IMG/VR virus record: IMGVR_UViG_3300020434_000055 | DNA: 64,000 nucleotides | Strand: one strand, 5' to 3' | Source of the DNA: a virus | Lineage: Duplodnaviria; Caudoviricetes | Shown here: positions 343 to 17,665 of the stretch, piece after piece | Layout of the letters: each line of letters begins with the position of its first letter | Numbering within the stretch: position 1 is the stretch's first letter | Made by a program: the position numbers and the translations under genes | Notes under the pieces: model-generated | What the model was told of the DNA's origin: nothing | Databases searched by the model: none | The model's input: the letters and a program-made list of their open reading frames with translations, nothing else

Positions 343-1545
343 ATGGTACCAATAGATCCCTTCAAAAAAGTTATCGACACATTAAAAGCGAACGGCAATT
401 ACAGAGTTTTTAACGATGTATTGCGAGAAGCCGGACATTTTCCTAATACAATTTGGTATGGAAAACATAATATTAAAAAAGTAATTAATTGGTGTTCTAA
501 TGATTATTTAGGCATGGGTCAGCATAAAGTTGTTATGGACGCAATGAGAACAGCATTAGAAACTACAGGTGCGGGTAGTGGTGGAACAAGAAACATATCA
601 GGGACATCACATTACCATGTAGCTTTAGAAATGGAGTTAGCAAAACTTCATAAAAAGCCAGCATCACTTTTATATACATCAGCCTTTGTTGCAAATGAAT
701 GGACATTAATTTCTCTTAAAAAAATTATTCCAGATATAGAATTTGTTAGTGATAGTGAAAACCATGCTTCTATAATAGTAGGTATTAAAAATAGTAGAGC
801 ACTTAAACATATATTTGAACATAATAATTTAGAAGACTTAGAAAAAAAATTAAAACAAGTAAAAGGTACACCTTGCGTAATATTTGAATCTGTATATAGT
901 ATGGACGGTGACATAGGACATATTAAAGAAATTTGTGATATTGCAGACAAATATAATGCAATAACATTTATTGATGAAGTTCATGCAGTTGGATTATACG
1001 GTCATGAAGGTGCAGGATTTTTAGAAAAATTAGGACTACAAGATAGAGTAGATATTGTTTCTGGTGGCTGTGGTAAAGCATTTGGAGTAGTAGGTGGTTA
1101 CGTTGCCGGAGATGCCACAGTAATAGATGCAATCAGATCTGTGTCTTCAGGATTTATTTTTACTACTAGTAATAGTCCAGTAATATGTGCAGGTGCATTA
1201 GCTTCTGTAAAATTTCTTAGAGATGACGGCGGAAGAGAATTAAGACAACAACACCAACAAGCGGCAAGTCAATTAAGAAAGTTATTATTAGATGCTAATA
1301 TTGATATGGGCACCTCTACATCACATTTAATTCCAGTAATGGTTAGAGATCCAATTAAATGTAAAAAAATGAGTGACGCTTTATTATTAGAACATGACAT
1401 TTATGTTCAGCCTATAAATTCTCCTACGGTTAAACCTGGGACAGAACGATTAAGATTTGCTCCAACACCTTTACATTCTGAATCTATAATACATGATTTA
1501 GTAGACAAACTAAAGAAAGTTATGTTACAATTAGAAAATGAATGA
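343..1545 (+). CDS. hemA: 5-aminolevulinate synthase (Shemin pathway, PLP-dependent)
   Basis: WCSNDYLGMGQH, GAGSGGTRNISGT, DEVHAVGLYG, GKAFG (PLP Lys), VQPINSPTV.PGTERLR. Confidence 0.95.
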   Translation: MVPIDPFKKVIDTLKANGNYRVFNDVLREAGHFPNTIWYGKHNIKKVINWCSNDYLGMGQHKVVMDAMRTALETTGAGSGGTRNISGTSHYHVALEMELAKLHKKPASLLYTSAFVANEWTLISLKKIIPDIEFVSDSENHASIIVGIKNSRALKHIFEHNNLEDLEKKLKQVKGTPCVIFESVYSMDGDIGHIKEICDIADKYNAITFIDEVHAVGLYGHEGAGFLEKLGLQDRVDIVSGGCGKAFGVVGGYVAGDATVIDAIRSVSSGFIFTTSNSPVICAGALASVKFLRDDGGRELRQQHQQAASQLRKLLLDANIDMGTSTSHLIPVMVRDPIKCKKMSDALLLEHDIYVQPINSPTVKPGTERLRFAPTPLHSESIIHDLVDKLKKVMLQLENE

Positions 1546-2197
1546 ATCCGATTATAAAATAACCCCATTATGGGCAACGCCTTTATTTCAATCGACTCTT
1601 AAAAATATACCACAAGAGTGTAAAGACTATATTATGAAAAACGTTGAGTATAAAAGATATCCTGCTAATAATGGATTTGGATCAAAAAGTAAATTCTTAT
1701 TAGATATTCAAGCTCTTGCTCCACTTAAAAAAGTATTAACAGATGTTACACATGAATACCTTTATAAAATATTAGACATAGACGAATCCGCAGATTTTCA
1801 AATGACTAACAGTTGGTCCGTAAAACATATAAAAGGAGATGAGGCTGGACAACATCATCATGCTAATTCTATGTTAAGTGGAATTTTATATCTTCAAACC
1901 GATGAAAAAACCGGTGATGTTTTATTTGTTAAAGAAAGAAATCATTTTCCGTTATTCAATGATACAATACAAATTCCTTTTAAAGGCAACAACTATAACT
2001 TATATAATGTAGAAGGATGGGCAATAAAACCCAGAAACAATCAATTATTGTTATTTCCTTCACAACTTAGACACGAAGTATATCCAAACGAAAGCGATAC
2101 TGAAAGATATTGTATTGCTTTTAACTTCTTTGCATTTGGCAAATTTGGCTATGACGACCAAGTTCAATTAGGTATTAAAGATGTCACCCGTGACTGA
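1538..2197 (+). CDS. 2OG-Fe(II) oxygenase, TIGR02466-like
   Basis: HHHANSMLSGILYL, LLLFPSQLRHEV, RYCIAFN. Confidence 0.85.
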   Translation: MNESDYKITPLWATPLFQSTLKNIPQECKDYIMKNVEYKRYPANNGFGSKSKFLLDIQALAPLKKVLTDVTHEYLYKILDIDESADFQMTNSWSVKHIKGDEAGQHHHANSMLSGILYLQTDEKTGDVLFVKERNHFPLFNDTIQIPFKGNNYNLYNVEGWAIKPRNNQLLLFPSQLRHEVYPNESDTERYCIAFNFFAFGKFGYDDQVQLGIKDVTRD

Positions 2198-3044
2198 TAA
2201 AATTATTATAGGAACCCGTGGCAGTAATTTAGCTTTATCCCAAGCTCGAAGTATTCAAAAATTATTAGAAATTGATTCCGAAATAAAAATTATAAAAACA
2301 TCTGGGGACATCCATGAAAATAAAGCTATTGCTGATATAGGAGGCAAAGGTGTATTTTCAACACAAATTGAACAAGAATTATTAGATTCAAAAATAGATT
2401 TAGCTGTTCACAGTTTAAAAGACCTACCAGGCATAATGACAAAAGGTTTATGTATTAAAGGTGTTGCAAAAAGAAATGATCCCAGAGATGCATTGTTAGG
2501 AAAAATTAAAAAAGGATCTAAAATTGGTACTAGTTCTCCTAGAAGAACTGCCCAATTAAATTATATAAAAAAAGATATAGAAATACTTCCTATTAGAGGT
2601 AATATAGATACTAGAATTAAAAAACTTAAAGATGGACAATATGACGCAATAATATTAGCAATGGCTGGTTTACAAATGCTTGGTTTAGAAAACGAAGTTG
2701 ATAAAATATATGATCTTGATGAAATAAAACCTTGTGCAGGACAAGGCATCATCGCAATACAAACTAGAGACAACAATGATCCTTTAAATGATTTAATTAC
2801 CAAAATAAATGACATACCAACATTTTATCAAGCCCAAGCAGAACGTTCCTTGCTAGAAGCAATTGGAGGGGATTGTCATACTGCATTAGGATGTTATACT
2901 ATGGTATCGGCCTACCATCTTTATCTAACAAGTGAACTATATGTAAATGATAAAAAATATACTGCATCTGGTTCTGGTAATGTTATTGATGCCAAAGACC
3001 TTGGAATCAGAGTTGGTAAAGAATTGTTAGCTCAAACAGACTAA
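2181..3044 (+). CDS. hemC: Porphobilinogen deaminase (hydroxymethylbilane synthase)
   Basis: IGTRGSNLAL, GKGVFS..IE, DLAVHSLKD, GTSSPRR, IRGNIDTR, GGDC (cofactor Cys). Confidence 0.95.
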   Translation: MSPVTDKIIIGTRGSNLALSQARSIQKLLEIDSEIKIIKTSGDIHENKAIADIGGKGVFSTQIEQELLDSKIDLAVHSLKDLPGIMTKGLCIKGVAKRNDPRDALLGKIKKGSKIGTSSPRRTAQLNYIKKDIEILPIRGNIDTRIKKLKDGQYDAIILAMAGLQMLGLENEVDKIYDLDEIKPCAGQGIIAIQTRDNNDPLNDLITKINDIPTFYQAQAERSLLEAIGGDCHTALGCYTMVSAYHLYLTSELYVNDKKYTASGSGNVIDAKDLGIRVGKELLAQTD

Positions 3045-3052
3045 ATATTTTT

Positions 3053-3280
3053 ATGCATCAGAAATACAAAGAAGAATTTATTTCAGTTACAGAATTATGG
3101 CAAGATGAAATCAATGAACTTGTAAATTCTATTTCAATATTAAAAACTTCAAACAATCCATTAGATCAAAGATTACGTTGGAAATACGAAATAGTAATTG
3201 ATTATTTAAAAGGAAGAATAGAAGAAGAAACTAGAGGCAACCATGAACATCGTTTGCCTGAGAAACGTACATTACACTAA
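3053..3280 (+). CDS. Hypothetical protein
   Basis: 75-aa ORF filling the gap, converging on the minus-strand gene. Confidence 0.55.
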   Translation: MHQKYKEEFISVTELWQDEINELVNSISILKTSNNPLDQRLRWKYEIVIDYLKGRIEEETRGNHEHRLPEKRTLH

Positions 3281-3687
3281 TACGGTCCACAAGTACTAAT
3301 TACCATATACCAAAGCTCATCATATTCCCAAATGTAATCAAGTTCTTCTTTTAGATACTTTTGTTGTAAAGGCCAAGCATCTTTCTCCATTTCTTGAACA
3401 CATTTAAACTTAACATTATTCATATCTTGAATATAGTGTATAAGTTCATGAAGTAATAACCCTTTAGCCCAAGGGTCAGACATATCGGTTTCGCCTCTCA
3501 TATAAATGATCTTTTTCTTTAAATCATAAAAGCCGTGAACATCAGTATTTTCAGGTACATCACCCTTGTAATAATGGTATTCTAATGGTGCTTTGTCCAT
3601 ACGAATAACCTGCGGTACGGGCCAGTCCACATTATAATTTGTATTTGCCCCTATCCAGAGCATTAAAGCTACAATAAGTTCTTTCAT
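3277..3687 (-). CDS. Secreted HExxH protein (DUF6647-like zincin)
   Basis: Hydrophobic N-terminus, LLLHELIHYIQ motif, Cys pair. Confidence 0.6.
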   Translation of the reverse strand: MKELIVALMLWIGANTNYNVDWPVPQVIRMDKAPLEYHYYKGDVPENTDVHGFYDLKKKIIYMRGETDMSDPWAKGLLLHELIHYIQDMNNVKFKCVQEMEKDAWPLQQKYLKEELDYIWEYDELWYMVISTCGPY

Positions 3688-3813: not shown

Positions 3814-6800
3814 ATGTCAGACCATTCAATTGGAAAAATTACAATTGCTGATGGTATCGTTGTAATTCAGCGAGATAATCAGTCTATAGAACTACAAGAA
3901 GGTGATTCTATCTATCTTAATGATATTGTAGAAGCTAAAAGCGGATCTGTTGGTATTACATTTACAGATGAAACTACATTTTCTATAGATGCAGGTTCTC
4001 AAGTAGTTGTAGATGAATTTGTTTACGATCCTGGTAACACAGGATCAATGAATATAAATGTCTTGGCAGGAAACTTCTCTTACATATCTGGGGAAATTTC
4101 TAAAATGGATGGTGACGTAGAAATTGTAACCCCAACTGCTACACTTACAGTTCAAGGTACCAATGTAGCAGGTAAAGTATCATTAGAAGGTGGTGGAGAC
4201 CAAATCGTATTACTTCCTAACGCAGATGGAACAGTAGGACAAGTTTTAATTACCAACCAATCAGGTAGTATATTATTAACTGAAGCATTTCAATCTACAA
4301 CAATTGCATCTGCTTTTATGCCACCAACTGTTCCTGTAATAATTCCTGAAGAAATTGTATTAAAAGAATTTGGTACTACAATTAATACTATGCAAAAAAT
4401 AAAAAAATTAGCAAAACAAGAAGCAGAAGAGGAAGTTGAAGAGGAAGTTGAAGAAGAAATTGAAGAGGAAGTTGAAGAGGAAGTTGAAGATCCATTTGAG
4501 GAAGAAATTAACGAAGAAGAATTAGAAGAATTAGAAGAAGAATTAGAAGAAGAAACACAACCAGTTGTTGACGAAGAAGTGGTTATTGAAGATGATATAT
4601 TTGAAGAAGAGCCAATTGTTGAAGAACAAGAGGATCAACCTGTCGTAGAAGATACAGTTATAGAAGATGAAATTATAAACGATGAACCTGAAGAGGAAGA
4701 TACTACAACAGAAGAGGATACTACAACAGAAGAAGAGGATACTACAACAGAAGAAGAGGATACTTATATACCACCTGTTATTCCTGACCCTGATCCTCCT
4801 GTTATTGAAGAGGACGAAGAAGAAGACATTTATGTACCACCTGTTACTGAAGAGGAAGATAACGACACTTATGTACCACCTGTTACTGAAGAAGATGAGG
4901 AAGAACCGGAAGTTAATGAAGCACCAACATTTGAAACAACAAGTGCTGTATCAGTTGCAGAAAGTCTTTCTAATGGATCAACTCTTGTTACTATGTCAGC
5001 AACAGATCCTAATACAGATACATCATTAAACACATTAACATATTCAATTACAGCAGGAAATGATGAAGGTAAATTTGCAATTAATTCATCAACTGGTGTA
5101 ATAACATATGCGACACAGGCGTCTACATTAACAACTCAAACATTTGAAAGTTTTTCTAATGGAGCAACAGCAACAGGATGGTCTGGTGATAATGCAGTTT
5201 TAGATACTAATAAATGGACAACTGTACTAGGAAAAATTAATGGTAGCATAAGTTCAACTCAAGACGTTTATAAAACATTTGACTATTCATCTGATTACGC
5301 AGGAAAAAGAGTTGCAATAGACTTTTTGTTTTGGGAGTGGGGTACTTGGGACGCACACAATTACAATCCAGATGGTGGAACAGAACAATTCCGTGTATAT
5401 GTTAATGATACAAATGTTGTTGCTGATGACAGACGTAAAGATGGATTTGGTGCAGGTGATAAAAAATATGGAGTAGAAACACAAAGCACTGGTTGGGATC
5501 CAGTACAAGATTCAAGCTTCTACGGTGACCAAGAAGGAGAACTTTATACAGTATATGGCACACTGGACGCAAGTGGAGATTTAAAATTAGGGTTTGGTAT
5601 GCGAGTTGGTGAAAGTGAATCCAATGAATCAGGAGCAATAGATAATTTAAAAATTTACTTAACAGATTTAAACTACGAAGATAATCAACAATATGTATTA
5701 ACCGTTCAAGCAAGTGATGGCAGTTTATCTGCAACCACAACACAAACAATTAATATAACAGATGTAAATGAAGCACCAAGAATGGAAGAAGCCAGAGATC
5801 CTGTATCAGTTGCTGAAGATACTGCTGACAATACAAACATAGCATCAATTTTTGCAGAAGATCCAGACGGTGACGATATTACATATTCAATTACAGCAGG
5901 TAATACAAATAGCAAATTTTCTATTACGTATTACAATTCTACAAATTCAGGTTTAATTGAAACAAACGGATCAATAGATTATGAAACAACACCACAATAT
6001 ACTTTAACTATAACAGCAACTGATGAAGGCGGTTTAACTACAACTACAACACAGGTTATTAATGTAACCAATGTTAACGAAGCACCAACTCTTGCTAGTA
6101 TGAATAATGTATCATTAGCGGAGAGTGTAAGCTCAGGTACATCAGTTGCAACTGCTTCGGGTTCTGATGTTGATGCAAGTACAACTTTAACATATTCAAT
6201 TTCATCTGGAAATAGTGCAGGCAAATTTGCAATTAATTCCAGCACAGGTGCTATTACTACTGCGGCATCACTAGATTATGAAACTACAACATCTTATACG
6301 TTAGTGGTTCAAGTAAGTGATGGATCTTTAACAGCAACTACAAATCAAGTTGTTAATATAACCAATGTTACAGAGCAATTCCAAGGAACAGCTAATTCTG
6401 GTACAGCGGCTACCTGGGGAGCAAATTTTAGTAATGATATGGTATTTGACAACGCATGGGCCAATGCCAAAATAGGATTTTTTGGTGACTTCCATAACTT
6501 TTCTACTTCTGAAAAAAATGTCATAACAAATATAGCAGAGGACTCTGCTGTAGGATTTGATGATGCCTTACACTTCGCTGACGGCTCAATAGACAATTAC
6601 ACATTTAAAGAGTTGTCAAACTATTCTATGGTTGTTGACTCTACGATAAGTGCATCAAATACATTTGACGATGAAGCATTAGTTCTAAACTTGTTAAGAG
6701 CAGGAACCACAGTAATGGTTGTAGGAGAGAACGCATATTGGGACATCGGCAATCACGCCAGTAATATGAAAATAGAATACATGGCAGATTTAATTGACAG

Positions 6801-7794
6801 TGACATAGATACTAACAATCGTCTTAGCATATTGAGTGGTTCAGATTCTGGAGGTTCTCCTACAGAGGGTCAAGAAATACAATCGGCCTACAACGTATCC
6901 TCTTATGGTGCAGATGATTCTGGCAGTTACGATACATCAAGAGGAGATGGACACGCCTTACCAGGTCGATTCCACGAAGAACATTTAGGATCAGGAGATC
7001 TTATAGCAATTGAAGACGATGGAGCATCCGTCGGAGAAAGACACGGTCACATCGCAGAATGGGACAAAGATGATTCAGACGCAGAATTCTTTGGTGCATA
7101 TATTGGACACGCAGACGGAAACGCATTTGAAAACTCTTGGGACGGCGACGGTAGAGTACAAGCAGACATATTTAAATGGGGATTAGAACAAAATCAAAAT
7201 GTAGATATTATAACAACCGACACAGAATATCTACCAATTGGTGGTTTAAAAACAACATATGGTTGGACCAATACTGCCAATAATACTAAAAGTTCTGTTG
7301 AAGCATTTCATATGGGTAACAATGTTTATATTGGAGGAGGTTTTGATCACTTAGATTGGGTGTGGGATGATTCAGCAAATGCGGCATTCATTGCTGTAAA
7401 CACGGACATGGATGGTGCAGATGAAAACGACGCTCCAACAAGACAAGATGACCATTACCTTGTTATTGGTGCTGATATAGATGGTGATGCAAATCTTTGG
7501 GAAACTACTGACGTATTTGATTTAGATAAAATCGGACTTTGGTCTGATTCGGACGACTTTTTAACACAAGACTCTGATGCTTCAGGCGATTACTACTTTA
7601 AAATTACACCGGTTACTTACGCAAACAGTTCATGGACAGTAGAAACTGATAATACAGTCACAATAGCTGATACATCAAATTATTACAATACAGGATACAT
7701 AGATTTAATGTCTAACTCAGATTTCCAAGACATTAACTACGCAATAATTGAAACGGAATCTGCTTTGATTTCAGATGTACTCGTAACTTATTAA
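3814..7794 (+). CDS. Large FecR-domain / acidic linker / cadherin-repeat protein (candidate T1SS substrate or adhesin)
   Basis: N-terminal FecR-like domain (GITFTDETTFSID..VVDEFVYDP..TPTATLTVQGT), Glu-rich linker, cadherin repeats (VNEAPTF, DVNEAP, NVNEAP; LDYETT..YTL.V..SDG), no signal peptide; TAAATA at 3786-3791. Confidence 0.8.
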   Translation: MSDHSIGKITIADGIVVIQRDNQSIELQEGDSIYLNDIVEAKSGSVGITFTDETTFSIDAGSQVVVDEFVYDPGNTGSMNINVLAGNFSYISGEISKMDGDVEIVTPTATLTVQGTNVAGKVSLEGGGDQIVLLPNADGTVGQVLITNQSGSILLTEAFQSTTIASAFMPPTVPVIIPEEIVLKEFGTTINTMQKIKKLAKQEAEEEVEEEVEEEIEEEVEEEVEDPFEEEINEEELEELEEELEEETQPVVDEEVVIEDDIFEEEPIVEEQEDQPVVEDTVIEDEIINDEPEEEDTTTEEDTTTEEEDTTTEEEDTYIPPVIPDPDPPVIEEDEEEDIYVPPVTEEEDNDTYVPPVTEEDEEEPEVNEAPTFETTSAVSVAESLSNGSTLVTMSATDPNTDTSLNTLTYSITAGNDEGKFAINSSTGVITYATQASTLTTQTFESFSNGATATGWSGDNAVLDTNKWTTVLGKINGSISSTQDVYKTFDYSSDYAGKRVAIDFLFWEWGTWDAHNYNPDGGTEQFRVYVNDTNVVADDRRKDGFGAGDKKYGVETQSTGWDPVQDSSFYGDQEGELYTVYGTLDASGDLKLGFGMRVGESESNESGAIDNLKIYLTDLNYEDNQQYVLTVQASDGSLSATTTQTINITDVNEAPRMEEARDPVSVAEDTADNTNIASIFAEDPDGDDITYSITAGNTNSKFSITYYNSTNSGLIETNGSIDYETTPQYTLTITATDEGGLTTTTTQVINVTNVNEAPTLASMNNVSLAESVSSGTSVATASGSDVDASTTLTYSISSGNSAGKFAINSSTGAITTAASLDYETTTSYTLVVQVSDGSLTATTNQVVNITNVTEQFQGTANSGTAATWGANFSNDMVFDNAWANAKIGFFGDFHNFSTSEKNVITNIAEDSAVGFDDALHFADGSIDNYTFKELSNYSMVVDSTISASNTFDDEALVLNLLRAGTTVMVVGENAYWDIGNHASNMKIEYMADLIDSDIDTNNRLSILSGSDSGGSPTEGQEIQSAYNVSSYGADDSGSYDTSRGDGHALPGRFHEEHLGSGDLIAIEDDGASVGERHGHIAEWDKDDSDAEFFGAYIGHADGNAFENSWDGDGRVQADIFKWGLEQNQNVDIITTDTEYLPIGGLKTTYGWTNTANNTKSSVEAFHMGNNVYIGGGFDHLDWVWDDSANAAFIAVNTDMDGADENDAPTRQDDHYLVIGADIDGDANLWETTDVFDLDKIGLWSDSDDFLTQDSDASGDYYFKITPVTYANSSWTVETDNTVTIADTSNYYNTGYIDLMSNSDFQDINYAIIETESALISDVLVTY
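4426..4915 (+). repeat. Low-complexity acidic tandem repeats (EEEVEEEV, EEDTTT x3, YVPPVTEE x2) in the linker
   Basis: gaagaggaagtt units near 4426-4490; gaagaggatactacaaca units near 4696-4760. Confidence 0.8.
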
Positions 7795-7798
7795 AATT

Positions 7799-9487
7799 AT
7801 GAACAAACTTATTATAACATTATTATTTTTCCTTTTATCCTTTAGCTGGAGTCATGCAGAAATTGAAGGCTCAGATGGATGTACATGGAAAGTAACTGAA
7901 GAAACAGATGAATATATAATGGAGAGCTGTGGTACTAATAATGCTAGGATCAGGCAAAAACATTCTATTGAAATGACTTATGTACCAAGCAAAGAAAAAC
8001 TAGTAAATCCTATAGACAAATTTAAAAAAATTGTTATAACACCAGAGGGAAAAGAAACTGAAAAAGAAATTAAAAAAATAGAAGAGGATATTACAATTAC
8101 AGAAAAAAAAGTTAAAGAGATAATTACAGATAAAGCATTAGAAGAAAAACAAATTATAGAAAGTGGAAAAAATGAAAAGATTATCAACGAAACAAAAGAT
8201 TCGTCAACTACGGATATTAAAGAAGAGATTAAAAAGAAAGAAACATTAACTTGGCAACGTCTCTATCAACTACTTCCAAGTCTTATTGTAAAAAACGAAA
8301 AAGTAAAAGCCGCAGAATTAGATTACGAAGCGGCGGTAGAAACATTAAAGAAAACGTATTCAGCATACTATCCACAAGTAACAATTACATATGGACATAA
8401 TTGGGAAGACGATAGAACACCATCAAAAAGTTCTACGGCTGGAGTTGATTCAATAAAAAATGATGGAAAACATGGCTACCAATCATCTATAACAATCACA
8501 CAAATGATTTGGGACTTTGGACGAACTAATTCTTTAATTGATATGGAACGAACAAAGGCTCAACAAACTTACTTTCATTTAGAACTTGCAAAAGAAGATC
8601 TTGTAATGGAGGCTATTAGTGCTTGGTTAAATTTAATGAAAACCTATAATGTACATGAAGCAAATAAAAAAATAGAAGCCAATGCATTGAAAACACTATC
8701 CATGACGATAGAAAAAGTTAAAAAAGGTGAAGCATCTAAATTAGAACAACTACAAATTGAACAGCAATATAGAACTTTCCAAACATTAACAATGACAAGC
8801 CAGTTAGCAGTTGATTCAGCAAAACAACGATTCCAAAATGTTTGGAGATTTAAACCTCTTGATGTTGCTAATATGCCTATGCCAATTACAGACTTGTTAG
8901 GATTAATACCTGATTCAGGAGCATCTGTAAGAAGTAACACTACATTAAAAATTGCAGATGCAGATATTGAAATTGCACTAGGGCAACTTAGATATGATAA
9001 CGCAGAGTTTAAACCAAGAATAGATGGTAAATTATCTTACACAGAAAAAGAAGGTGAACTAGGCGGAGCATACAATGAACAAAAAGAAGAGTGGAGAGCA
9101 GATATTACATTAAGTTGGAAAATATTTGGTGGATTTTCTAACGTACATCAAAAAAGAAGTGATATGGCAAAACTAGGTTCTGCAGAACTTAGATATGAAG
9201 ACGTTGTAAGAATTGTAAATGAACAATTTAACAATGCTTGGAACAATTACGTATTAGTTGAAAAGAACTTAGAAACACTAAAAAGAACTGTTGAAATTAA
9301 CAAAGAAATGTATGCCTTAACACTTGAAGATTTTAAAGCAGGTAACTCTCCTATCATAGCTGTATTTGGAATGAAGACAGCATATATCATGAGCGAAGTT
9401 GCTTACCAAAATGCACAAATTGACCTTTTAATAGCAAGATATCAATTACATAAAGTTCTTGGACTCGTAGATCCCATCTTCAACTAA
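7799..9487 (+). CDS. TolC-family outer-membrane channel with charged N-terminal extension
   Basis: Signal peptide; two-repeat OEP pattern (YYPQVTIT, QMIWDFGRT, FKPRIDG, LSWKIFGGF, ARYQLHKVLG). Confidence 0.85.
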   Translation: MNKLIITLLFFLLSFSWSHAEIEGSDGCTWKVTEETDEYIMESCGTNNARIRQKHSIEMTYVPSKEKLVNPIDKFKKIVITPEGKETEKEIKKIEEDITITEKKVKEIITDKALEEKQIIESGKNEKIINETKDSSTTDIKEEIKKKETLTWQRLYQLLPSLIVKNEKVKAAELDYEAAVETLKKTYSAYYPQVTITYGHNWEDDRTPSKSSTAGVDSIKNDGKHGYQSSITITQMIWDFGRTNSLIDMERTKAQQTYFHLELAKEDLVMEAISAWLNLMKTYNVHEANKKIEANALKTLSMTIEKVKKGEASKLEQLQIEQQYRTFQTLTMTSQLAVDSAKQRFQNVWRFKPLDVANMPMPITDLLGLIPDSGASVRSNTTLKIADADIEIALGQLRYDNAEFKPRIDGKLSYTEKEGELGGAYNEQKEEWRADITLSWKIFGGFSNVHQKRSDMAKLGSAELRYEDVVRIVNEQFNNAWNNYVLVEKNLETLKRTVEINKEMYALTLEDFKAGNSPIIAVFGMKTAYIMSEVAYQNAQIDLLIARYQLHKVLGLVDPIFN

Positions 9488-9510
9488 TAAAATCATTAAA
9501 TACAACTATA

Positions 9511-10263
9511 ATGAAAAGTCTAATTCAACATCTATCCCGCGATAAAAAAACTGCTTTGATGTTATTAATCAGTAGTTTAATTATTGGTATATGTGCATTG
9601 ACTCCTGCCTTATTTGTAATCATTGTATTAAACAAGTATCTTGCATCAGGGATTACAGCAACTTTAATATCGTTAACAGCAGGGGCCGTATTAGCTTTAG
9701 GTTTTGAATTCACATTTAGACAAAATAGATCAATAATGATGCAGGAATTTAATCGAAAAATTTATGATCCATTACTAAAAGCATTTGTAGAAAAATTAAA
9801 AACAGTTCAAAATTTACCTACTAACGAATTTAAAAAATTAGATGGTGCTGGTACTATGATTAAAAATATGCGTACCTCATCAGTTACTAGTTGGATATTG
9901 GATTGGCCATTTGTATTATCATTTTTAATAGTTTTAGTTTTTATAAACTGGACCGCGGCTGTTATAACTGCAATTTTTATGATTATATTAAACAGAGTTA
10001 TTACATGGAGAACAAATTTAAATCTTACACAAGATTCTATGTCTAGTGTTGAAATCCTTATAACTGGATTATTAACATTGTCAATTATTGCCATTGGAGC
10101 ATTAATGATTATGCAAGGACGTTTAGATGTTGGAACTTTAATTGGATCTAACATATTAGCCGCGAGAGCATTACAAGGAACAAACAAATATACAAAAGCA
10201 AAGGAGTTTATACAACAACGTGATAGAGCAGTCTCAGAAATCGTCAGTTTCGTCAAGCAGTAA
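9511..10263 (+). CDS. T1SS ABC-transporter transmembrane domain only (no NBD)
   Basis: ALTPALFVIIVLNKYL..TLISLT, LDWPF, G.LDVGTLIGSNILAARAL resemble PrtD/HlyB TMD; no Walker A/B. Confidence 0.75.
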   Translation: MKSLIQHLSRDKKTALMLLISSLIIGICALTPALFVIIVLNKYLASGITATLISLTAGAVLALGFEFTFRQNRSIMMQEFNRKIYDPLLKAFVEKLKTVQNLPTNEFKKLDGAGTMIKNMRTSSVTSWILDWPFVLSFLIVLVFINWTAAVITAIFMIILNRVITWRTNLNLTQDSMSSVEILITGLLTLSIIAIGALMIMQGRLDVGTLIGSNILAARALQGTNKYTKAKEFIQQRDRAVSEIVSFVKQ

Positions 10264-10945
10264 ATTCTTTTTAGGAATTACAGCTTTATTTGTAGCATTC
10301 ATAGTATGGATGTGGTTTGCTAAAGTAGATATTACTACTCAAGCAGTAGGATATGTTGTACCTGAAAGTAATTTTACTTCCATAGACACAATGGTTAATG
10401 GACAAGTTATTGAAGTAAAAGTTAAACAAGGTGATTCAGTTAAAAAAGGAGATGTAATTCTTATTATTAATCCAGGTGTAGGTTATGAACCTTATAATGT
10501 AATTGCTAATATAGATGGACGAATACAAACTTTAAATTATAAAAATCCTGGAGCAGTTGTTAATAAAGGTGAAACCATAGTGTTACTAGTCCCTGTAAAT
10601 CAAAAGTTAATTGTAACAGGTAAACTATTTGTTAAAGATAGAGGCTATGTTGAAGTAGGACAATCAGCAAAAATTAAACTTGCTAATCAAGATCAATTAA
10701 AATTTGGACCTATTGATGCAACAATAATATCTATATCGCCAGATGCAGTACAATCACAACAAGGAACTTGGTATGAAATAGAATTAGAACTTGAGCAACA
10801 AAAATTTACTTCAGGTAGTATTGATTATACATTAGTGCCGGGTATACAAGTACAAATCTTTATATTAACTGGTGAAAGAACAATATTAAGTTATGTTACT
10901 ACACCATTCCATAATAGTATAGGACAAGCCTTACAAGAAAGATAA
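10220..10945 (+). CDS. HlyD-family membrane-fusion protein lacking the alpha-helical hairpin
   Basis: TM anchor, GQVIEVKVKQGDSVKKGDVI, IDGRI..PGAVVNKGE, VEVGQ, ISISPDA, LVPG, TGERTILSY; GTG start with AAGGAG at 10201. Confidence 0.85.
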   Translation: MIEQSQKSSVSSSSKFFLGITALFVAFIVWMWFAKVDITTQAVGYVVPESNFTSIDTMVNGQVIEVKVKQGDSVKKGDVILIINPGVGYEPYNVIANIDGRIQTLNYKNPGAVVNKGETIVLLVPVNQKLIVTGKLFVKDRGYVEVGQSAKIKLANQDQLKFGPIDATIISISPDAVQSQQGTWYEIELELEQQKFTSGSIDYTLVPGIQVQIFILTGERTILSYVTTPFHNSIGQALQER

Positions 10946-10946
10946 T

Positions 10947-13142
10947 TTAATCTGTTTGAATAATAGTTATTTCTGGTTTAGTAGTATCTGTACCAATTGT
11001 TATATTTTGAGTTTCTGAATCTTGAACTATTTGAATATCTGCAGATTTATCCGTTTCAGTTTTTATATATGCAGTATGACCACCATGCGTTCTGTTTACA
11101 ACTGAATAATTTCCACTTGTAGTAGCAGTAGCATCATCTTCATTGCCACCTGTTGTAAATCTTCCTGTTGCTGTTGTACTTTCACCATCTGTTGTTGTAG
11201 TTTGAGTAAGTTCACCTGTTGTATAATTAATAATTTCACCACTAGTTGTTACTGTTGTTTCTGATCCACTATTGTCAACCCATTCTGTACCACAAGACTG
11301 AGCCGCATTATTCCAATAGTAACCCCAGTTAACACAATCTTCTTCATTATCAATTTCTGCTAACCATAATTCTAATTCTAAATCTTGATCATAATCATCT
11401 TCGTAACCATACTCTTCTTCTAATGATACTGAATCATCATCTTCTTCATACTCGCCATAGTAATACCAGGCATAAGTCCAATCATAAAATGTTTGCCAAT
11501 CGTTCCAAGTCCAATCAGCAATATACTTGTCTTTTAAACTTGGCATATCCCACGGAGCAGGTTGACCTTCACACATTTCCCATTTATAACTGCTTACCCA
11601 ACACCATCCATACCATTTGTTGAAAAGTTGTTTAGATTCTGATGTCCATGAAGTATAATTTTTAAACAACTTCCAGTCATCTGTATACCAGTCATTTAAG
11701 TAATCTATATATTCTTGATTACACCAATCACTACCATAGCCATTGTAATTACAATAATTTTCTATTGTTAAAGTTGGCGGACCTCCATTTGCTATGTAAT
11801 CTGCGTTAGCATAATATTCATCATTTAAAGCAAAATCTTCCCAAGTGTATCCTTCAACTGTAGACGTTGCTTCTTCTTCAACTTCTTCAGATTTATCTTC
11901 TACTTGATTATCATAAGCCGTTAAACCATAATCTTCTAATAGGTCGTTATATTCTTCCATATATTCGTCCCAATTAACTTCATCCCAATTAATAGAATCC
12001 CAATTAATTGTGTCCCACGTACAATCTGAACAACCTATTGCGTCAAAGTATGCTTGGTCCATTTCTGCATACATCTGTTTAGCATCATCCCAATCCATTG
12101 TTTGTTCGCCTTCAGCGTCCCATACTGATATTTGATTGTCATCATCTATATAACCCCAATCTTTTAAATCGTCTTCCCATTCATCATAGTAAGATGTGTC
12201 TATGTCTGATTCTACTACTTCGTCTACTACTATATCTTGAGTAGAACTTGTATCTATTTCACTTGATTGTGTTGTAAAATCTTCAACTACCGCCGTAGTG
12301 TCTGATGTTAGTGTATCTGATTCAATTGTTAATTCCTCTGATACAATTTGTTCTTCTATTTCATTAGCTTCTTTGGCATCCATTTCTATTTCTAAAGTTT
12401 CTTGTTCTAACAACTCATTAGATTCAAACATTTCTTTTTCATTTTCTAAAAATTCGTTATTATCTTTTCTATCAAATTGAAGGTCGTTTTTATCTTCAAT
12501 GTCGTCTTCTACACTATCTAAATCAAATAAATTCTTTTTCTGAAGATTATCTAATGGGGATGGTGCCCTAGGTACTAGGTTATCACTAAGAACTGTTACT
12601 GATGTATATACTTGAGTTATTGTTTGAGAGCCTGCATCATTAGAAACTGTAACTGCTCCTACTTGTCCAGAAGAATCAGGAAGTAATGTAATTGTAGTAA
12701 CACCGCTTGTTGATACTGATCCTGAAAATGCTGTACCTTGTACTGTAATTGATGCTGTTGGCGTTACAATTTCAACGTCTCCTCCTAACTTAGAAACTTC
12801 GCCAGACTCATAGGTAAACGTTCCTACGTTAACCGATACGTTCATTGAAATTTCTATTGGTACAACTGTTGTATCAAAAGCAAATTCATCAATTAAAAAT
12901 TCTGTATTGGGTGCAAGAGTAACTTTTGTATTATCTACGAACACAATGTTCATAGCACCATCTTCTCCAGTTTGGAGAAAGTCATGCATTTCTAAAAGAT
13001 ATCCTGAAACAACCTTATAAGTTTTTCCTGAACGTTCATTAAACGTAGAACCCATTTTATCTTTAACTTCACCTACAGTTATAGCTAAAGCATTTGTAAC
13101 AAATAGTATTAAAAATGATACCACAAAGAAGAACTTCTTCAT
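10947..13142 (-). CDS. Secreted FecR-domain protein with acidic Trp/Tyr/Cys-rich C-terminal region
   Basis: Signal peptide MKKFFFVV..NALA (ATG 13142; ORF track starts at 13151); FecR domain paralogous to 3814 gene. Confidence 0.8.
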   Translation of the reverse strand: MKKFFFVVSFLILFVTNALAITVGEVKDKMGSTFNERSGKTYKVVSGYLLEMHDFLQTGEDGAMNIVFVDNTKVTLAPNTEFLIDEFAFDTTVVPIEISMNVSVNVGTFTYESGEVSKLGGDVEIVTPTASITVQGTAFSGSVSTSGVTTITLLPDSSGQVGAVTVSNDAGSQTITQVYTSVTVLSDNLVPRAPSPLDNLQKKNLFDLDSVEDDIEDKNDLQFDRKDNNEFLENEKEMFESNELLEQETLEIEMDAKEANEIEEQIVSEELTIESDTLTSDTTAVVEDFTTQSSEIDTSSTQDIVVDEVVESDIDTSYYDEWEDDLKDWGYIDDDNQISVWDAEGEQTMDWDDAKQMYAEMDQAYFDAIGCSDCTWDTINWDSINWDEVNWDEYMEEYNDLLEDYGLTAYDNQVEDKSEEVEEEATSTVEGYTWEDFALNDEYYANADYIANGGPPTLTIENYCNYNGYGSDWCNQEYIDYLNDWYTDDWKLFKNYTSWTSESKQLFNKWYGWCWVSSYKWEMCEGQPAPWDMPSLKDKYIADWTWNDWQTFYDWTYAWYYYGEYEEDDDSVSLEEEYGYEDDYDQDLELELWLAEIDNEEDCVNWGYYWNNAAQSCGTEWVDNSGSETTVTTSGEIINYTTGELTQTTTTDGESTTATGRFTTGGNEDDATATTSGNYSVVNRTHGGHTAYIKTETDKSADIQIVQDSETQNITIGTDTTKPEITIIQTD

Positions 13143-13144
13143 GA

Positions 13145-14236
13145 TTAACACCCGTTGGATACGTTTTGAGTAAGATTGCCGGATTGATTATTTCTATTGT
13201 ACGAATATGTACAAGTATCTGAACCGTCTTGTGTAAAGTTTAATGTATAATCGTAAATTGAATCACCTGATACAGTAACGTGAGCTGTATTACTTCCACC
13301 TGTTTGAGCAAAGTTTATATTTGAATCATCTGTATAGATATAAATTCTAGCAGTATTATTTCCACCTGCCATATGTAGTCCTAATGTATTATCATCTCCA
13401 GATATGTACGTTCTCAAATAATTGCCGTCACCCAATATCGTCATAGTATCTCCATAAGGATCAGTATCAACACTAGTGTAACTAGAGTGAATATCTAAAA
13501 TATTTGAACTACCTATAATATCGTGAAGTTGATAATTGCCCGTACCATACGATGAAGTGTGTAATCTATTTGAATTACCAACTATATAAACATCAATTGA
13601 TGCACCTTCACTTCCTGATGAATCTGCAAACTGACTATGCGAAGCAGTTTGTGGACCAATTGCCTTATTAGCATTTGTATTAAATCCTTCTGAATCAGCA
13701 GTGCTATAAAACTGTACATCATTTGAATCTCCCGCCATACGAACATATAAGAAATGATCATCACCTCTACTACGAACCCAAAAAGTATTTGAATCTCCAT
13801 AGATATCTAAATCAACGTTAAGATTGTCCATATCATCGGCGCCCCAGGCGTCAAAATCTACAATGTTTAAATCACCTGTAATATCTATGTCATAATAATG
13901 ACCAGAAGAATTCGTATCATCTATATCAGGTCTCAATTTATTACCATCACCAGTTGCTGTATAATCAAAGGTCATATTAGTACCTTTAAAAGATAAGTGA
14001 TACGAATTATCAGTTACATTTGAATCACCTATTTGTTTAATAATAACAGTTAAATTGTTTCCATCAATTTTAAAAGGAGCACTAGCACTCATTCCAAACG
14101 TGTTGTTTGAACCGTCTTGTTTTATGTAAATGTCTTGACCTGTTTGGCCAATTTGTGTTATATAGACTTGATTACTTGCATAACAATTAATCGTCGTTGC
14201 TAGTAACAATATCAGACTCAATAATAATGCTTTCAT
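13145..14236 (-). CDS. Curlin-like repeat (beta-solenoid) protein
   Basis: Signal peptide MKALLL (ATG 14236, GGAGG SD at 14243-14247); many hxhxhxGxxN / QxGxxN repeats; directly after csgG. Confidence 0.7.
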   Translation of the reverse strand: MKALLLSLILLLATTINCYASNQVYITQIGQTGQDIYIKQDGSNNTFGMSASAPFKIDGNNLTVIIKQIGDSNVTDNSYHLSFKGTNMTFDYTATGDGNKLRPDIDDTNSSGHYYDIDITGDLNIVDFDAWGADDMDNLNVDLDIYGDSNTFWVRSRGDDHFLYVRMAGDSNDVQFYSTADSEGFNTNANKAIGPQTASHSQFADSSGSEGASIDVYIVGNSNRLHTSSYGTGNYQLHDIIGSSNILDIHSSYTSVDTDPYGDTMTILGDGNYLRTYISGDDNTLGLHMAGGNNTARIYIYTDDSNINFAQTGGSNTAHVTVSGDSIYDYTLNFTQDGSDTCTYSYNRNNQSGNLTQNVSNGC

Positions 14237-15467
14237 CTGCAACCTCCAATGCGGCTTTAGTGTCATTCATTTCTGCTTGTAATTTTACTTTACGATCTTC
14301 TTTCATCTCGAGCTTTAATTGTTTCGCAACTAATATTTTTAAGTGTTCTTGATATTCTGCCCAAGTTTTAAATTCTGTACCGTTAGCTTTATTGTACCAA
14401 GCTAATTCATTTTTTTGAACTTTCTTTAAATGTTTTTTAGCCAACAATGCGGCTTTCTTAGCTTCTTTCTCTGCCAACAATGCTTCTTTTTTAGCTAACT
14501 TCTCTGCTTTAATTAATTCTTTTTTAGCTTTCTTCTCTTCTAATAATGCAAGTTTTTTAGCTTTCTTCTCTGCTAGGTATTCTTCCCTTGTTTTAACTTT
14601 TATTATTGTTTGTTCAACATCTAATGATACCTTTTCTTCAGTTACTACTTCTGCATCTGATTCTTCAATAACTTCTGGTAGTACTGGTTCAGGTGGTAGT
14701 TTAATTTTCCATAGTTCTTTTTTAGCACCTACTTGTATAATTTCTGCAACGCCGGCTTCAATTGCTTTTCTTACAGCAAAAGTTACTGGTTCGTTTCTTG
14801 CCACTCCTGCTTCTGATTCTAATAACATTGTATCAGCATCAAAGTATTTGAATATATCTGCACCTTTTCCTGTTGAGAATATTGTTTTTTCGATTGTTGT
14901 TGATATAACAACCTCACCTGTTTGCACATTTACTAATCTTAAAATAATAGTAACTACATCCTGTCTGTATTGTGTATTGGCTTGTACGCCTAAAATTCTT
15001 GCACCTATTCCACCTGATTTAGTATCTGAATCGTAACCTACTATACCACCTGTAATATAAGCACCAGCAAATAGTAATGCTGGTAATGGTTCAGCATTAT
15101 CTCCATCTGCCATTTGTCTTGTTGATCTAATAAGTTTTCTTTCTTGTAATAGACTTGGTAGACTTGCTCTTTCAACAACTCTAAACCATTTGCCGTCTCC
15201 AACATCTTGTAATGCTTTAATTAAAATTTGATATGAACCTTGAGTTACTGCTGTACTCATTGATGCAAAATTGCCACCTGGCTTCTTTTGTCCAGTCATA
15301 TCTAAGAAGTCATACACAGCAATTATAACAGGGTCTCCATCTAATTCAGGAACCTCTATATATGTTTTTGCAGTTGGTACTTGAGTTCTAAAATCAAAAT
15401 CTGGTTTTCCGGCGCAACTAGCTAAAAACAATGTTGCTAAAAATATGATTGCTAATTTTTTAAACAT
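14187..15467 (-). CDS. csgG: CsgG curli secretion channel lipoprotein with Lys/Ala-rich C-terminal extension
   Basis: Lipobox LASC; VYDFLDMTGQKK, STAVTQG, WFRVVER..L..LLQERKLIR, GGIVGYD, QYRQDVVT..LRLVNVQTGEV. Confidence 0.9.
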   Translation of the reverse strand: MFKKLAIIFLATLFLASCAGKPDFDFRTQVPTAKTYIEVPELDGDPVIIAVYDFLDMTGQKKPGGNFASMSTAVTQGSYQILIKALQDVGDGKWFRVVERASLPSLLQERKLIRSTRQMADGDNAEPLPALLFAGAYITGGIVGYDSDTKSGGIGARILGVQANTQYRQDVVTIILRLVNVQTGEVVISTTIEKTIFSTGKGADIFKYFDADTMLLESEAGVARNEPVTFAVRKAIEAGVAEIIQVGAKKELWKIKLPPEPVLPEVIEESDAEVVTEEKVSLDVEQTIIKVKTREEYLAEKKAKKLALLEEKKAKKELIKAEKLAKKEALLAEKEAKKAALLAKKHLKKVQKNELAWYNKANGTEFKTWAEYQEHLKILVAKQLKLEMKEDRKVKLQAEMNDTKAALEVADESIIIESDIVTSNDD

Positions 15468-15472
15468 TATTA

Positions 15473-15922
15473 TTAGTCTTCCTTCGGCATTGTAAATGTT
15501 GTTACAGTTCCATCAGTTTCAGTCACAGTAACAACTACGTTACCTGTGTTAGGTGTAGTCCAAGTTACAATTTCTCCACCAACTGGTGATGTAAATGTTC
15601 CTGAATCTTGTTGTAAGCCGTCAGCACCAAATACGTTTGTTGTAATTTGTTTTGCCAATGCTGTATAAAATCTTGATTCTAAATTTGCTTTGAATTTTGC
15701 AATCGCAGTATTCTTTGCATCTTGCTCTGCTTTGTCAGCCGCGGCTTTTTCAGCGGCTTTTATAGCATCTTTTCTTGTTTTTTCTATGTTTTCAATAGTC
15801 AAATAGTGTGAACTTTTGCCCTCTCCACTAAAAGATGGGCTATGAAACTTAAAACCTATTTCACTGGCGTTTACACCAGTCATTATAAAGCAAAATAGTA
15901 ATATAGCTGTTAGAATCTTCAT
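15473..15922 (-). CDS. csgF: CsgF curli assembly component
   Basis: Signal peptide then SEIGFKFHSPSFSG; adjacent to csgG; ATG 15922 with GAGGAG SD (ORF track start 15934). Confidence 0.75.
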   Translation of the reverse strand: MKILTAILLFCFIMTGVNASEIGFKFHSPSFSGEGKSSHYLTIENIEKTRKDAIKAAEKAAADKAEQDAKNTAIAKFKANLESRFYTALAKQITTNVFGADGLQQDSGTFTSPVGGEIVTWTTPNTGNVVVTVTETDGTVTTFTMPKED

Positions 15923-15959
15923 TGTACTCCTCAAATTTGTCTAATTCTATTAATGTTAA

Positions 15960-16021: not shown

Positions 16022-17665
16022 ATGTCAAAACTTTTAACAAGCAAATGGGCAGTTTGTATCACTTTATTGATTCTTTTACTCATTAAGTGGGCAGACCCAA
16101 CCCCTATTCAATCAGCAAAACTTACGACCTTTGATTCTTATCAAAAATTTGGACAACACCTTGACTCAAAGAGCTTAATTCTGTTAGATATATCCGATGG
16201 ATCCTTAACAAAAGGAGGTCAATGGCCTTGGAAACGAGATAACATAGGTCGAGTAATAGTTAATGCATATCGCAATGGCGCCGCCTTGGTAGTACTTCAA
16301 GTCGTATTTGCACATAAAGATAGGCTAGGTGGAGATGAAATGTTTCTTAAAATGATTTCAAGATATCCAATTATCCTTACTGAAACTAATGATGTTAAAA
16401 ACTTGCTCAGCATTGAACGAAAAGCACTTGCAATAGGTAACGTAGATGTACCTGTTGATATAGATGGCACAATAAGAAAACTTCCACTTGAAAATTCTAT
16501 TCCAGAAGTAGTACTAAAAGTAATCAAGTTTCCTACTAAAGCAAAAAATGACATATGGATAGACTTCCGTCATCATATTCCAAGAATAGATGCTACTGAT
16601 AAAGACTGGTCAGCAATGAAAGGCAAAATAGTTTTTATTGGAACTACATTTAAAGGTTCAACATTTGTTACTACTCCTAATGGCTTAAAAAATACACACG
16701 AGATAATGGCTATTAGTACTGAAACATTATTGTCAGGCAAATTTATTAGTAGACCAGATTGGCTAGAAAAAATGGAATGGGCATTTGTTATTATAGGAAG
16801 TATACTATTTCTAATTTTAATTCCAAGACTAGGTGTCCTATGGAGTTTTGTACCTATTATAGTTTATCTAAGTATTGTCCTTGGAGCAAGTGCTTACCTA
16901 TGGACAACAAATCTATATCTTACAGAATGGTTAACACCTGTTGTAATTGTTACCTTTGTTTGGGGACATTTAATATACAATAATTTTGCACGTGAGAACA
17001 GATTAAAATTACAAATCAAAAGACAGTTTGAACACTACCTTGCACCCGACATGGTTAAGAAGTTACAAAAAGATCCTTCACTATTAAAACTGGGTGGCGA
17101 AACAAAAACAATGACATTTATGTTTTCAGACATACGAGGCTTTACTCCTATATCAGAAAAATTTAAAAGCAATCCTGCAGGACTTACAAAACTTATTAAC
17201 AGATTCTTAACACGTATGACAAATGTTGTAATTGCTAATAATGGAACTATAGACAAATTCATGGGCGATTGTATTATGGCATTTTGGAATGCACCAATTG
17301 ACGTTAGAGATCATCAAGGTTGTGCTATTAGAACTGCTTTATTAATGACCGTTGAATTAACTGCATTAAACAAAGAACTAAAAGCAGAAGGACTACCTAC
17401 CATTAACATAGGCATAGGAATTAACACAGGTAAAGCACTTGTAGGAAATATGGGTTCTGATCAACGGTTTGACTACTCTGTAATAGGAGACCCTGTTAAT
17501 CTTGCATCACGTTTAGAAAGTTCTAGCAAAACTTTAGGTGAAACTATAATAATTTCAGAAAATACTATACAAGGCAGAGAGCATTTATACCCTTTTAAAT
17601 TCATAGATAGCATTACTGTTAAAGGTAAAACCGAAAAAATCAAGGTTTATACAATAACAACTTAA
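16022..17665 (+). CDS. CHASE2-domain class III adenylate/guanylate cyclase
   Basis: N-terminal TM, CHASE2 (QWPWKR, VDIDGTIRKLPL), 3 TMs, FSDIRGFT, IDKFMGDCIMAFWNAP, GIGINTG..VGNMGS..RFDYSVIGDPVNLASRLE. Confidence 0.95.
   Translation: MSKLLTSKWAVCITLLILLLIKWADPTPIQSAKLTTFDSYQKFGQHLDSKSLILLDISDGSLTKGGQWPWKRDNIGRVIVNAYRNGAALVVLQVVFAHKDRLGGDEMFLKMISRYPIILTETNDVKNLLSIERKALAIGNVDVPVDIDGTIRKLPLENSIPEVVLKVIKFPTKAKNDIWIDFRHHIPRIDATDKDWSAMKGKIVFIGTTFKGSTFVTTPNGLKNTHEIMAISTETLLSGKFISRPDWLEKMEWAFVIIGSILFLILIPRLGVLWSFVPIIVYLSIVLGASAYLWTTNLYLTEWLTPVVIVTFVWGHLIYNNFARENRLKLQIKRQFEHYLAPDMVKKLQKDPSLLKLGGETKTMTFMFSDIRGFTPISEKFKSNPAGLTKLINRFLTRMTNVVIANNGTIDKFMGDCIMAFWNAPIDVRDHQGCAIRTALLMTVELTALNKELKAEGLPTINIGIGINTGKALVGNMGSDQRFDYSVIGDPVNLASRLESSSKTLGETIIISENTIQGREHLYPFKFIDSITVKGKTEKIKVYTITT

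Follow-up and report, generated by a model that had tools for sequence, protein, structure and literature searches.

In the 64,000-nucleotide IMG/VR virus record IMGVR_UViG_3300020434_000055 (the whole of which we call the window), three consecutive genes at positions 7,799–10,945 encode a TolC-family outer-membrane factor, the membrane domain of an ABC exporter and a HlyD-family adaptor—a type I secretion system (T1SS) lacking its ATPase and its adaptor hairpin. Two features are regarded as essential to type I secretion, namely ATP hydrolysis by the ABC subunit and the tip-to-tip contact of the adaptor hairpin with TolC. We read the trio as a working, ATPase-less descendant of an adhesin-type T1SS operon that exports and/or anchors the candidate adhesin encoded upstream across the envelope, driven by the proton-motive force and/or Ca2+-dependent folding, and give this reading a probability of roughly one half. 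The ancestral operon would have been of the kind found in marine Alphaproteobacteria, with a TolC, a PrtD-like ABC protein and an AprE/HlyD-like adaptor, and its present carrier a large marine myophage family.

The trio forms the 3′ part of a tight plus-strand operon of four genes, which encode, in order, a giant protein of 1326 amino acids (3814–7794), the TolC-family protein (562 amino acids; 7799–9487), the PrtD/HlyB-type ABC membrane domain (250 amino acids; 9511–10263), and the HlyD/AprE-type adaptor (241 amino acids; 10220–10945). The giant-protein gene and tolC are separated by 4 nucleotides and tolC and the ABC gene by 23, while the adaptor gene starts with a GTG codon 44 nucleotides inside the ABC gene (overlap 10220–10263). 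A preliminary description of this DNA, made from the letters and open reading frames (ORFs) alone, had called the three frames intact and coupled, and so we found them.

That description also held that the ABC gene encodes a membrane domain only and stops cleanly. Indeed, its stop codon lies about 13 residues past the extension of transmembrane helix 6 (TM6), and all short forms in our alignment end at the same point. No Pfam domain was found in the 250-residue protein, and the T1SS permease/ATPase models of NCBIfam matched over the membrane part only (LssB, 141–300; NHLM ABC, 364–438). It is nevertheless recognizably the membrane domain of a T1SS ABC exporter: a PDB profile search returned HlyB and PrtD, and the top Foldseek matches of its AlphaFold model (pLDDT 78) were HlyB (8dck/7sgr) and PrtD (5l22), with TMq about 0.7. 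The model has six TM helices and keeps the long cytoplasmic hairpin of TM2/TM3 (intracellular loop 1, ICL1), with TM4 and TM5 short. In the alignment, 56 columns comprising the cytoplasmic extension of TM4, ICL2 and the extension of TM5 are absent from all short forms, and the deletion junction in the window protein lies near residues 165–171 (10003–10023). TM1–3 and TM6 are the best-conserved parts, above all TM6 and the TM5–TM6 loop.

The preliminary description had noted no gene for a nucleotide-binding domain (NBD) nearby, and the search bears this out across all 64 kb: no ORF in the window combines a Walker A with an LSGGQ motif, and no ABC_tran domain was detected. Five related phage records (434 kb in total, 12–41% complete) likewise yielded no transport NBD; the sole ABC_tran protein above the cut-off was SufC, and two further PF00005 matches (L025 and L026) fell below it. 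Thus, the fused or paired NBD of a T1SS, with Walker A/B and LSGGQ motifs, was found neither in the window nor in these incomplete records. As a separate observation, a 137-kb related phage contig (locus L024, in the IMG/VR record of L011) encodes SufB, a glyoxalase-like protein, a SufE-like protein, SufC and a TonB-dependent receptor by consecutive genes at 6596–10057—a phage-borne iron–sulfur and iron-uptake gene set.

The adaptor is reduced in a comparable manner. It matches TIGR01843 (3.9e-51) in two stretches, and its lipoyl half-motifs, KKGDVILII and NVIANIDG, are linked by only nine residues (NPGVGYEPY), as the preliminary description had seen in reporting half-motifs joined without a hairpin. 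When aligned to HlyD (8dck_C), profile positions 20–83 correspond to residues 64–127 and positions 94–241 to residues 330–478, leaving the hairpin of about 200 residues (HlyD 128–329) without a counterpart. In its place stands a PGVGYE loop (residues 85–90; 10472–10489) that does not vary among 20 sequences with identities as low as 48%. What is left of a T1SS HlyD-family adaptor is a short cytoplasmic tail, a single TM helix, the lipoyl domain and the beta-barrel. Adaptors of this short form make up more than 1500 clusters at 90% identity in public metagenomes, all of 240–241 residues.

The TolC-family protein matches Pfam OEP (1e-48) and, below that model's cut-off, TIGR01844 (9.8e-36), which places it among the TolC-family factors of T1SSs. 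Its core spans residues 155–562 (8261–9487) and is modeled confidently by AlphaFold over residues 155–555; the extension that precedes it, of about 135 residues and close to the 130 extra residues first reported, is modeled with low confidence. The N-terminus consists of a signal peptide (residues 1–20), a conserved two-cysteine beta mini-domain (residues ~28–55; 7880–7963) with the pattern C-x-W...EET-x-x-Y...C...ARIR-x-K, and a linker rich in lysine and glutamate (residues ~56–154; 7964–8260), the length of which varies between lineages from ~50 to 150 residues. This Lys/Glu-rich, helical arm of variable length may be a tether that spans the periplasm. The tethered mini-domain may stand in for the lost hairpin contact, an idea on which a complex prediction of the periplasmic part of the adaptor (residues 36–241) with the mini-domain (residues 21–80), scoring 0.00, does not bear.

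A further difference concerns the periplasmic gate. The H7/H8 tip of Escherichia coli TolC reads GTRTIVDVLD (G-T-R367-T-I-V-D371-V-L-D374), and cellular T1SS relatives have GNRSLLDVLN, in which the gate arginine and aspartate are retained. All phage forms instead have GNSPIIAVFG (residues 515–524; 9341–9370 in the window), with the gate arginine (R367) and aspartates (D371/D374) replaced; overall identity in this alignment is low, the tip motif being flanked by invariant glycine and threonine columns. By this comparison, the phage proteins lack the canonical ionic gate, and its loss would be a fourth change correlated with those of the motor, the coupling loop and the hairpin.

The preliminary description had proposed looking for the same deletions in homologues and computing dN/dS, with full-length homologues bearing scattered stops as the sign of simple decay. 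Scans of IMG/VR and of metagenome assemblies recovered more than 20 distinct contigs that share the genes, their order and the deletion boundaries, a recurrence well beyond chance, at identities of 38–95% for TolC, 36–95% for the membrane domain and 48–95% for the adaptor, and with no stops or frameshifts in the trio. Pairwise dN/dS (NG86; pairs with dS 0.05–2) had medians of 0.09 for TolC, 0.16 for the membrane domain and 0.14 for the adaptor, and ranged overall from about 0.03 to 0.23. Among 1.84 billion representative proteins we found about ten clusters of 243–257-residue membrane-domain proteins at 28–91% identity; the next matches were exclusively PrtD-type ABC proteins of 540–590 residues (~30–40% identity), each aligned in two stretches. 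Maximum-likelihood analysis of 97 membrane domains gave a tree (unrooted, with long branches and the donor lineage not separated) in which the 18 short forms lie on one side of a single branch with support 100/100, and branches within this clade exceed one change per site—a pattern that fits one old truncation kept ever since. Purifying selection on the trio through deep divergence, as opposed to decay, is therefore well supported, and a single ancestral event, or several in close succession, took away the adaptor hairpin, the ICL2 coupling region and the NBD. Parts of all three genes are also represented among contigs from RNA libraries (four libraries, three studies), for example 9667–10023 with zero differences from the window sequence; DNA carry-over is possible, so they are no proof of expression.

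When one genome per prokaryotic species was scanned, the short form occurred only on two contigs of the metagenome-assembled genome Rickettsiales bacterium MED657 (NZHE01000025.1 and NZHE01000018.1; loci L033 and L034), which hold the entire phage module with a membrane domain 59% identical to that of the window. These contigs are probably phage DNA binned with a SAR11-like genome, and would offer a hint to the host. The remaining 78 loci encode full-length ABC proteins at 25–36% identity; Rhodospirillales, other marine Alphaproteobacteria and Pelagibacteraceae account for most of them. Among cellular loci, the closest are ordinary operons, with an OEP protein of 430–490 residues, an ABC protein of 560–590 residues including ABC_tran, and an adaptor of 420–435 residues with an AprE-type hairpin. 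At 13 of the 78 full-length loci, a neighboring protein has an N-domain that shares 30–38% identity with the N-terminus of the giant phage protein; these neighbors are 600–1350 residues long, lack a signal peptide and, in some cases, contain RTX or cadherin-like repeats. We found no intermediates, neither phage-borne full-length nor cellular short forms, and DNA and protein searches of a cultured-phage collection returned no homologue of the TolC protein.

The giant protein lies directly upstream of the trio, putatively co-transcribed with it, at every locus with enough upstream DNA. It comprises an N-terminal FecR-like/retention-module domain (residues 1–~190), an acidic linker, three Pfam cadherin repeats (2.6e-42) and a conserved C-terminal tail; it has no signal peptide. 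A profile of the N-domain, built from phage and cellular homologues, matched a single PDB structure (5ix9, residues 14–88; E 5.9e-9), which identifies this domain as a retention-module homologue. The link rests on this profile search: the window protein alone had no NCBIfam match, and its cellular N-domain homologues matched NF033682 weakly, below the cut-off. The structure, the N-terminal region of the Marinomonas ice-binding adhesin, has served as template for the retention module of LapA (bioRxiv 10.1101/198937), a plug that leaves LapA threaded through a TolC-like pore (bioRxiv 10.1101/198937; PMC5550230). Conservation of the giant protein is highest at its two ends, as it is in LapA-like adhesins (bioRxiv 10.1101/198937).

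At the position of the LapG site (around residues 120–130 in the window protein), cellular homologues read G[ST]AAAEG and phage forms KANTDGE or KVSLEGG, and the LapG-like di-alanine site thus appears to have been lost in the phages; neither LapG nor LapD was seen in the module in a search confined to the loci at hand. The window protein ends in ...ALISDVLVTY, and the phage C-termini follow the pattern ...ALIS-D/E-V-V/L-V-S/T-x or, in two lineages, ...D-V-T-V-V-T—an acidic residue and then hydrophobic ones—with cellular neighbor proteins ending alike (...DDVTFSI, ...AADFVVTT). We take this ending to resemble the extreme C-terminal motif of PrtG/AprA-type substrates.

These observations suggest how an ATPase-less exporter might operate. 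The membrane-domain dimer, the adaptor ring and the gate-less TolC would still form an assembly through the envelope; the adhesin would pass through it C-terminus first, until its N-terminal plug holds it in the pore, and infected cells would thereby display a phage adhesin. In place of ATP, the drive would come from the proton-motive force and/or from the cadherin and acidic regions, whose Ca2+-dependent folding in seawater would work as a ratchet. That an ABC-like membrane domain can function without an ATPase follows from the precedent of SbmA, which is structurally related to ABC membrane domains and, as a secondary transporter, uses the proton gradient (PMC8442886, PMC13316013). The retention/FecR-like domain, which would stay in the periplasm, would be a likely input to the neighboring CHASE2 cyclase; pairing of FecR-domain proteins with adjacent CHASE2 sensors is known from bacteria (PMC5192318, PMC5498481). 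In its most complete form—an ATP-independent, T1SS-like machine in which an NBD-less dimer, a hairpin-less ring and a gate-less TolC export the giant adhesin on proton-motive force and/or Ca2+-driven folding outside the cell, with the plugged adhesin reporting to the cyclase—the proposal is, in our view, less likely than not.

Several points weigh against an ATPase-less exporter. The C-terminal ‘signal’ of the giant protein is no more than a resemblance. An adaptor of lipoyl domain and beta-barrel only, working with an ABC partner that has no periplasmic domain, may fall short of the TolC tip. The phage genomes searched are incomplete and an NBD may lie elsewhere, and the ICL1 hairpin that was kept could still dock a partner. 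Finally, the lineage of the window has the trio without a linked cyclase, and the proposed signaling link is thus not obligatory.

The alternative that fares best is an ATPase supplied in trans, whether by a host T1SS ABC protein joining a mixed assembly or by a stand-alone phage NBD encoded elsewhere, with secretion still driven by ATP. Full-length T1SS ABC homologues at 25–30% identity are present in Pelagibacteraceae and Rhodospirillales genomes; in the solved HlyB/D complex (7sgr/8dck) there are several ABC dimers per adaptor ring; the ICL1 hairpin is there in the AlphaFold model; and completeness of the related records is, as stated, low. However, ICL2—in this fold the docking region for the opposite NBD—is deleted in all forms, and its clean loss argues against docking of any NBD. 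Moreover, conservation of the membrane domain is lowest in ICL1, and the ABC-type NBDs in 434 kb of related phage sequence come down to the SufC of the suf cluster, with none in the window. We therefore consider an ATPase in trans unlikely, though between this and ATP-independent operation, both of which the preliminary description had put forward, the evidence does not choose.

It is unlikely, too, that the trio has ceased to export and either spans the envelope as a static anchor or forms an open TolC channel, with the giant protein taking another route to the surface or remaining inside the cell. Possible uses of such a structure are signaling through the CHASE2 cyclase, flux of small molecules (cyclic nucleotides, nutrients), and control of envelope permeability or of lysis timing. 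The combined loss of motor, coupling loop, hairpin and ionic gate would suit it, as would the cyclase gene that follows the adaptor gene in most lineages. The same phages also encode a second energy-independent outer-membrane channel, CsgG/CsgF, for which a role as pore, in uptake or in lysis timing has been proposed (PMC7029224, PMC9004378). Against a passive structure stands the signal-peptide-free giant protein, which keeps a retention module and a conserved T1SS-like C-terminus and is always encoded directly upstream. In addition, conservation of the membrane domain peaks in TM6 and the TM5–TM6 loop, the lining of the translocation path in homologues, and the window lineage has kept the trio despite losing the linked cyclase.

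Of the interpretation given in the preliminary description, the view that the deletions are recurrent, selected and functional stands, whereas its option of a dominant-negative hijacker, whose truncated parts would poison or retarget a host T1SS or TolC-dependent pumps, is disfavored. The adhesin gene upstream, the descent from adhesin-type operons and the losses of ICL2 and of the TolC gate residues did not figure in that description. Truncated subunits of oligomeric machines frequently behave in this way, and the likely hosts have related T1SS genes. However, a poison needs no complete, co-evolving set of three parts, and the phages encode their own TolC and adaptor and a substrate-like protein in one operon. 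All three genes are equally strongly constrained, and identities of 18–30% to host-type proteins are low for mixing into host complexes; we regard such hijacking as very improbable. A decaying remnant or an assembly artefact, although loss of a large domain is a typical product of decay, we reject on the intact frames, the identical boundaries in independent assemblies from many samples, the dN/dS of about 0.1 and the deep short-form clade.

The gene content of the window is that of a large, marine myophage-like virus, with a class Ia ribonucleotide reductase, an ATP-dependent DNA ligase and a T4 gp9/10-like baseplate protein. Directly 3′ of the adaptor gene, on the minus strand, lie the curli genes (FecR protein, curlin, csgG and csgF; 10947–15934), of which csgG and csgF have their best cultured relatives in Pelagibacter phage HTVC008M (50.7% identity) and Methylophilales phage Melnitz. 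They are followed on the plus strand by a CHASE2 class III nucleotide cyclase (16022–17665; Pfam CHASE2 and Guanylate_cyc). In its full form, the module runs from a DUF6647 gene on the opposite strand through the genes for giant protein, TolC, membrane domain and adaptor to the CHASE2 cyclase. The cyclase gene directly follows that of the adaptor in most relatives; in the window the curli genes intervene, and the 640-residue cyclase linked to the trio is absent. An 88%-identical relative (loci L005/L009; 1929–9918) has two cyclases, one on either side of the curli genes. The lineage that has diverged most (L028–L030) has a small HTH_8 gene on the opposite strand (~2723–2971, minus strand) between those for membrane domain and adaptor.

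Upstream of the adhesin gene and divergent from it, the window encodes a DUF6647 protein of 136 residues (3277–3687, minus strand), and this gene is syntenic with that of the adhesin in most relatives (L004, L017, L021, L022, L023 and L034). Its translation contains a HELIH motif (HExxH), and the protein is possibly a small Zn-peptidase. It also has a hydrophobic N-terminus, and may process or release the adhesin in place of LapG. Farther upstream (343–3044, plus strand), genes for a class I/II aminotransferase (possibly of the 5-aminolevulinate-synthase type), a 2-oxoglutarate-Fe(II) oxygenase and a porphobilinogen deaminase follow one another; they are syntenic with the secretion module in relatives and may be auxiliary genes of tetrapyrrole metabolism. 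Elsewhere in the window, an aldehyde dehydrogenase-like gene (49635–51068, plus strand) has its top match in the phage collection (51% identity) in the 636-kb uncultured huge phage LR756504.1.

Taken together, phages have naturally dropped both essentials of type I secretion along with the TolC gate, and selection has long conserved what remains in abundant ocean phages. If export or anchoring persists, the trio would define the minimal working core of a T1SS and offer a naturally occurring case in which to study export powered by the proton-motive force or a folding ratchet. For pelagimyophage-like phages, it is a second borrowed machine of the envelope in addition to curli, and it points to infection making cells sticky or providing them with a new sensory input.

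Earlier reports describe curli genes, FecR proteins, kinases and cyclases in pelagiphages and pelagimyophages (PMC7029224, PMC9004378, PMC9599517). The trio shares with these curli (type VIII secretion) clusters the phage group and the neighborhood, and in both cases FecR proteins and cyclases stand beside a borrowed secretion channel absent from the host. The reports, in contrast, cover CsgG, CsgF and curlin: by term search, neither PMC9004378 nor PMC9599517 mentions TolC, HlyD or type I secretion, PMC7029224 contains neither ABC nor HlyD as a term, and our literature search found no publication naming both HTVC008M and TolC.

Among systems with related parts, SbmA/BacA (SLiPT) resembles the phage membrane domain in being related to ABC membrane domains, free of an NBD and powered by the proton gradient. 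It is, however, a stand-alone importer with no tripartite partners, and was not among the top 50 Foldseek matches of the membrane domain, all of which were ABC exporters; the analogy is functional only. For the adaptor, a parallel is Borrelia BesA, which has no hairpin and whose partner BesC has markedly less stable gates (PMC8277102). BesA/BesC (4kks) thus shares with the phage set an adaptor without alpha-hairpin and an outer-membrane partner with weakened gates, and the adaptor profile gave a weak but contiguous match (E 4e-4). The Borrelia partner, unlike the phage ABC-type membrane domain with its lack of a periplasmic part, is a resistance-nodulation-division pump with a large periplasmic domain and is driven by the proton-motive force. 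T1SSs of the PrtD/AprD–AprE type (PrtD, 5l22) and HlyB/HlyD (7sgr, 8dck) provide the best sequence and fold matches for membrane domain and adaptor, and the closest cellular loci have the phage gene order (OEP, ABC, membrane fusion protein); the phage forms differ in having no ATP-binding motifs and no counterpart of HlyD 128–329.

The overall likeness is greatest to adhesin-type T1SSs (LapA/MpIBP-like, LapEBC-type). As in these, a TolC-family factor, an ABC-exporter membrane domain and a HlyD/AprE adaptor are encoded in one operon, together with a giant protein that has no signal peptide and possesses an MpIBP retention-module homologue, Ca-binding repeats and conserved termini, and the nearest relatives are alphaproteobacterial operons made of the same parts. 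What sets the phage system apart is that it is encoded by a phage, dispenses with the NBD, ICL2 and the adaptor hairpin, has lost the TolC gate arginine and aspartate, has no LapG-type di-alanine site in the retention module, and has gained a TolC with a tethered N-terminal mini-domain.

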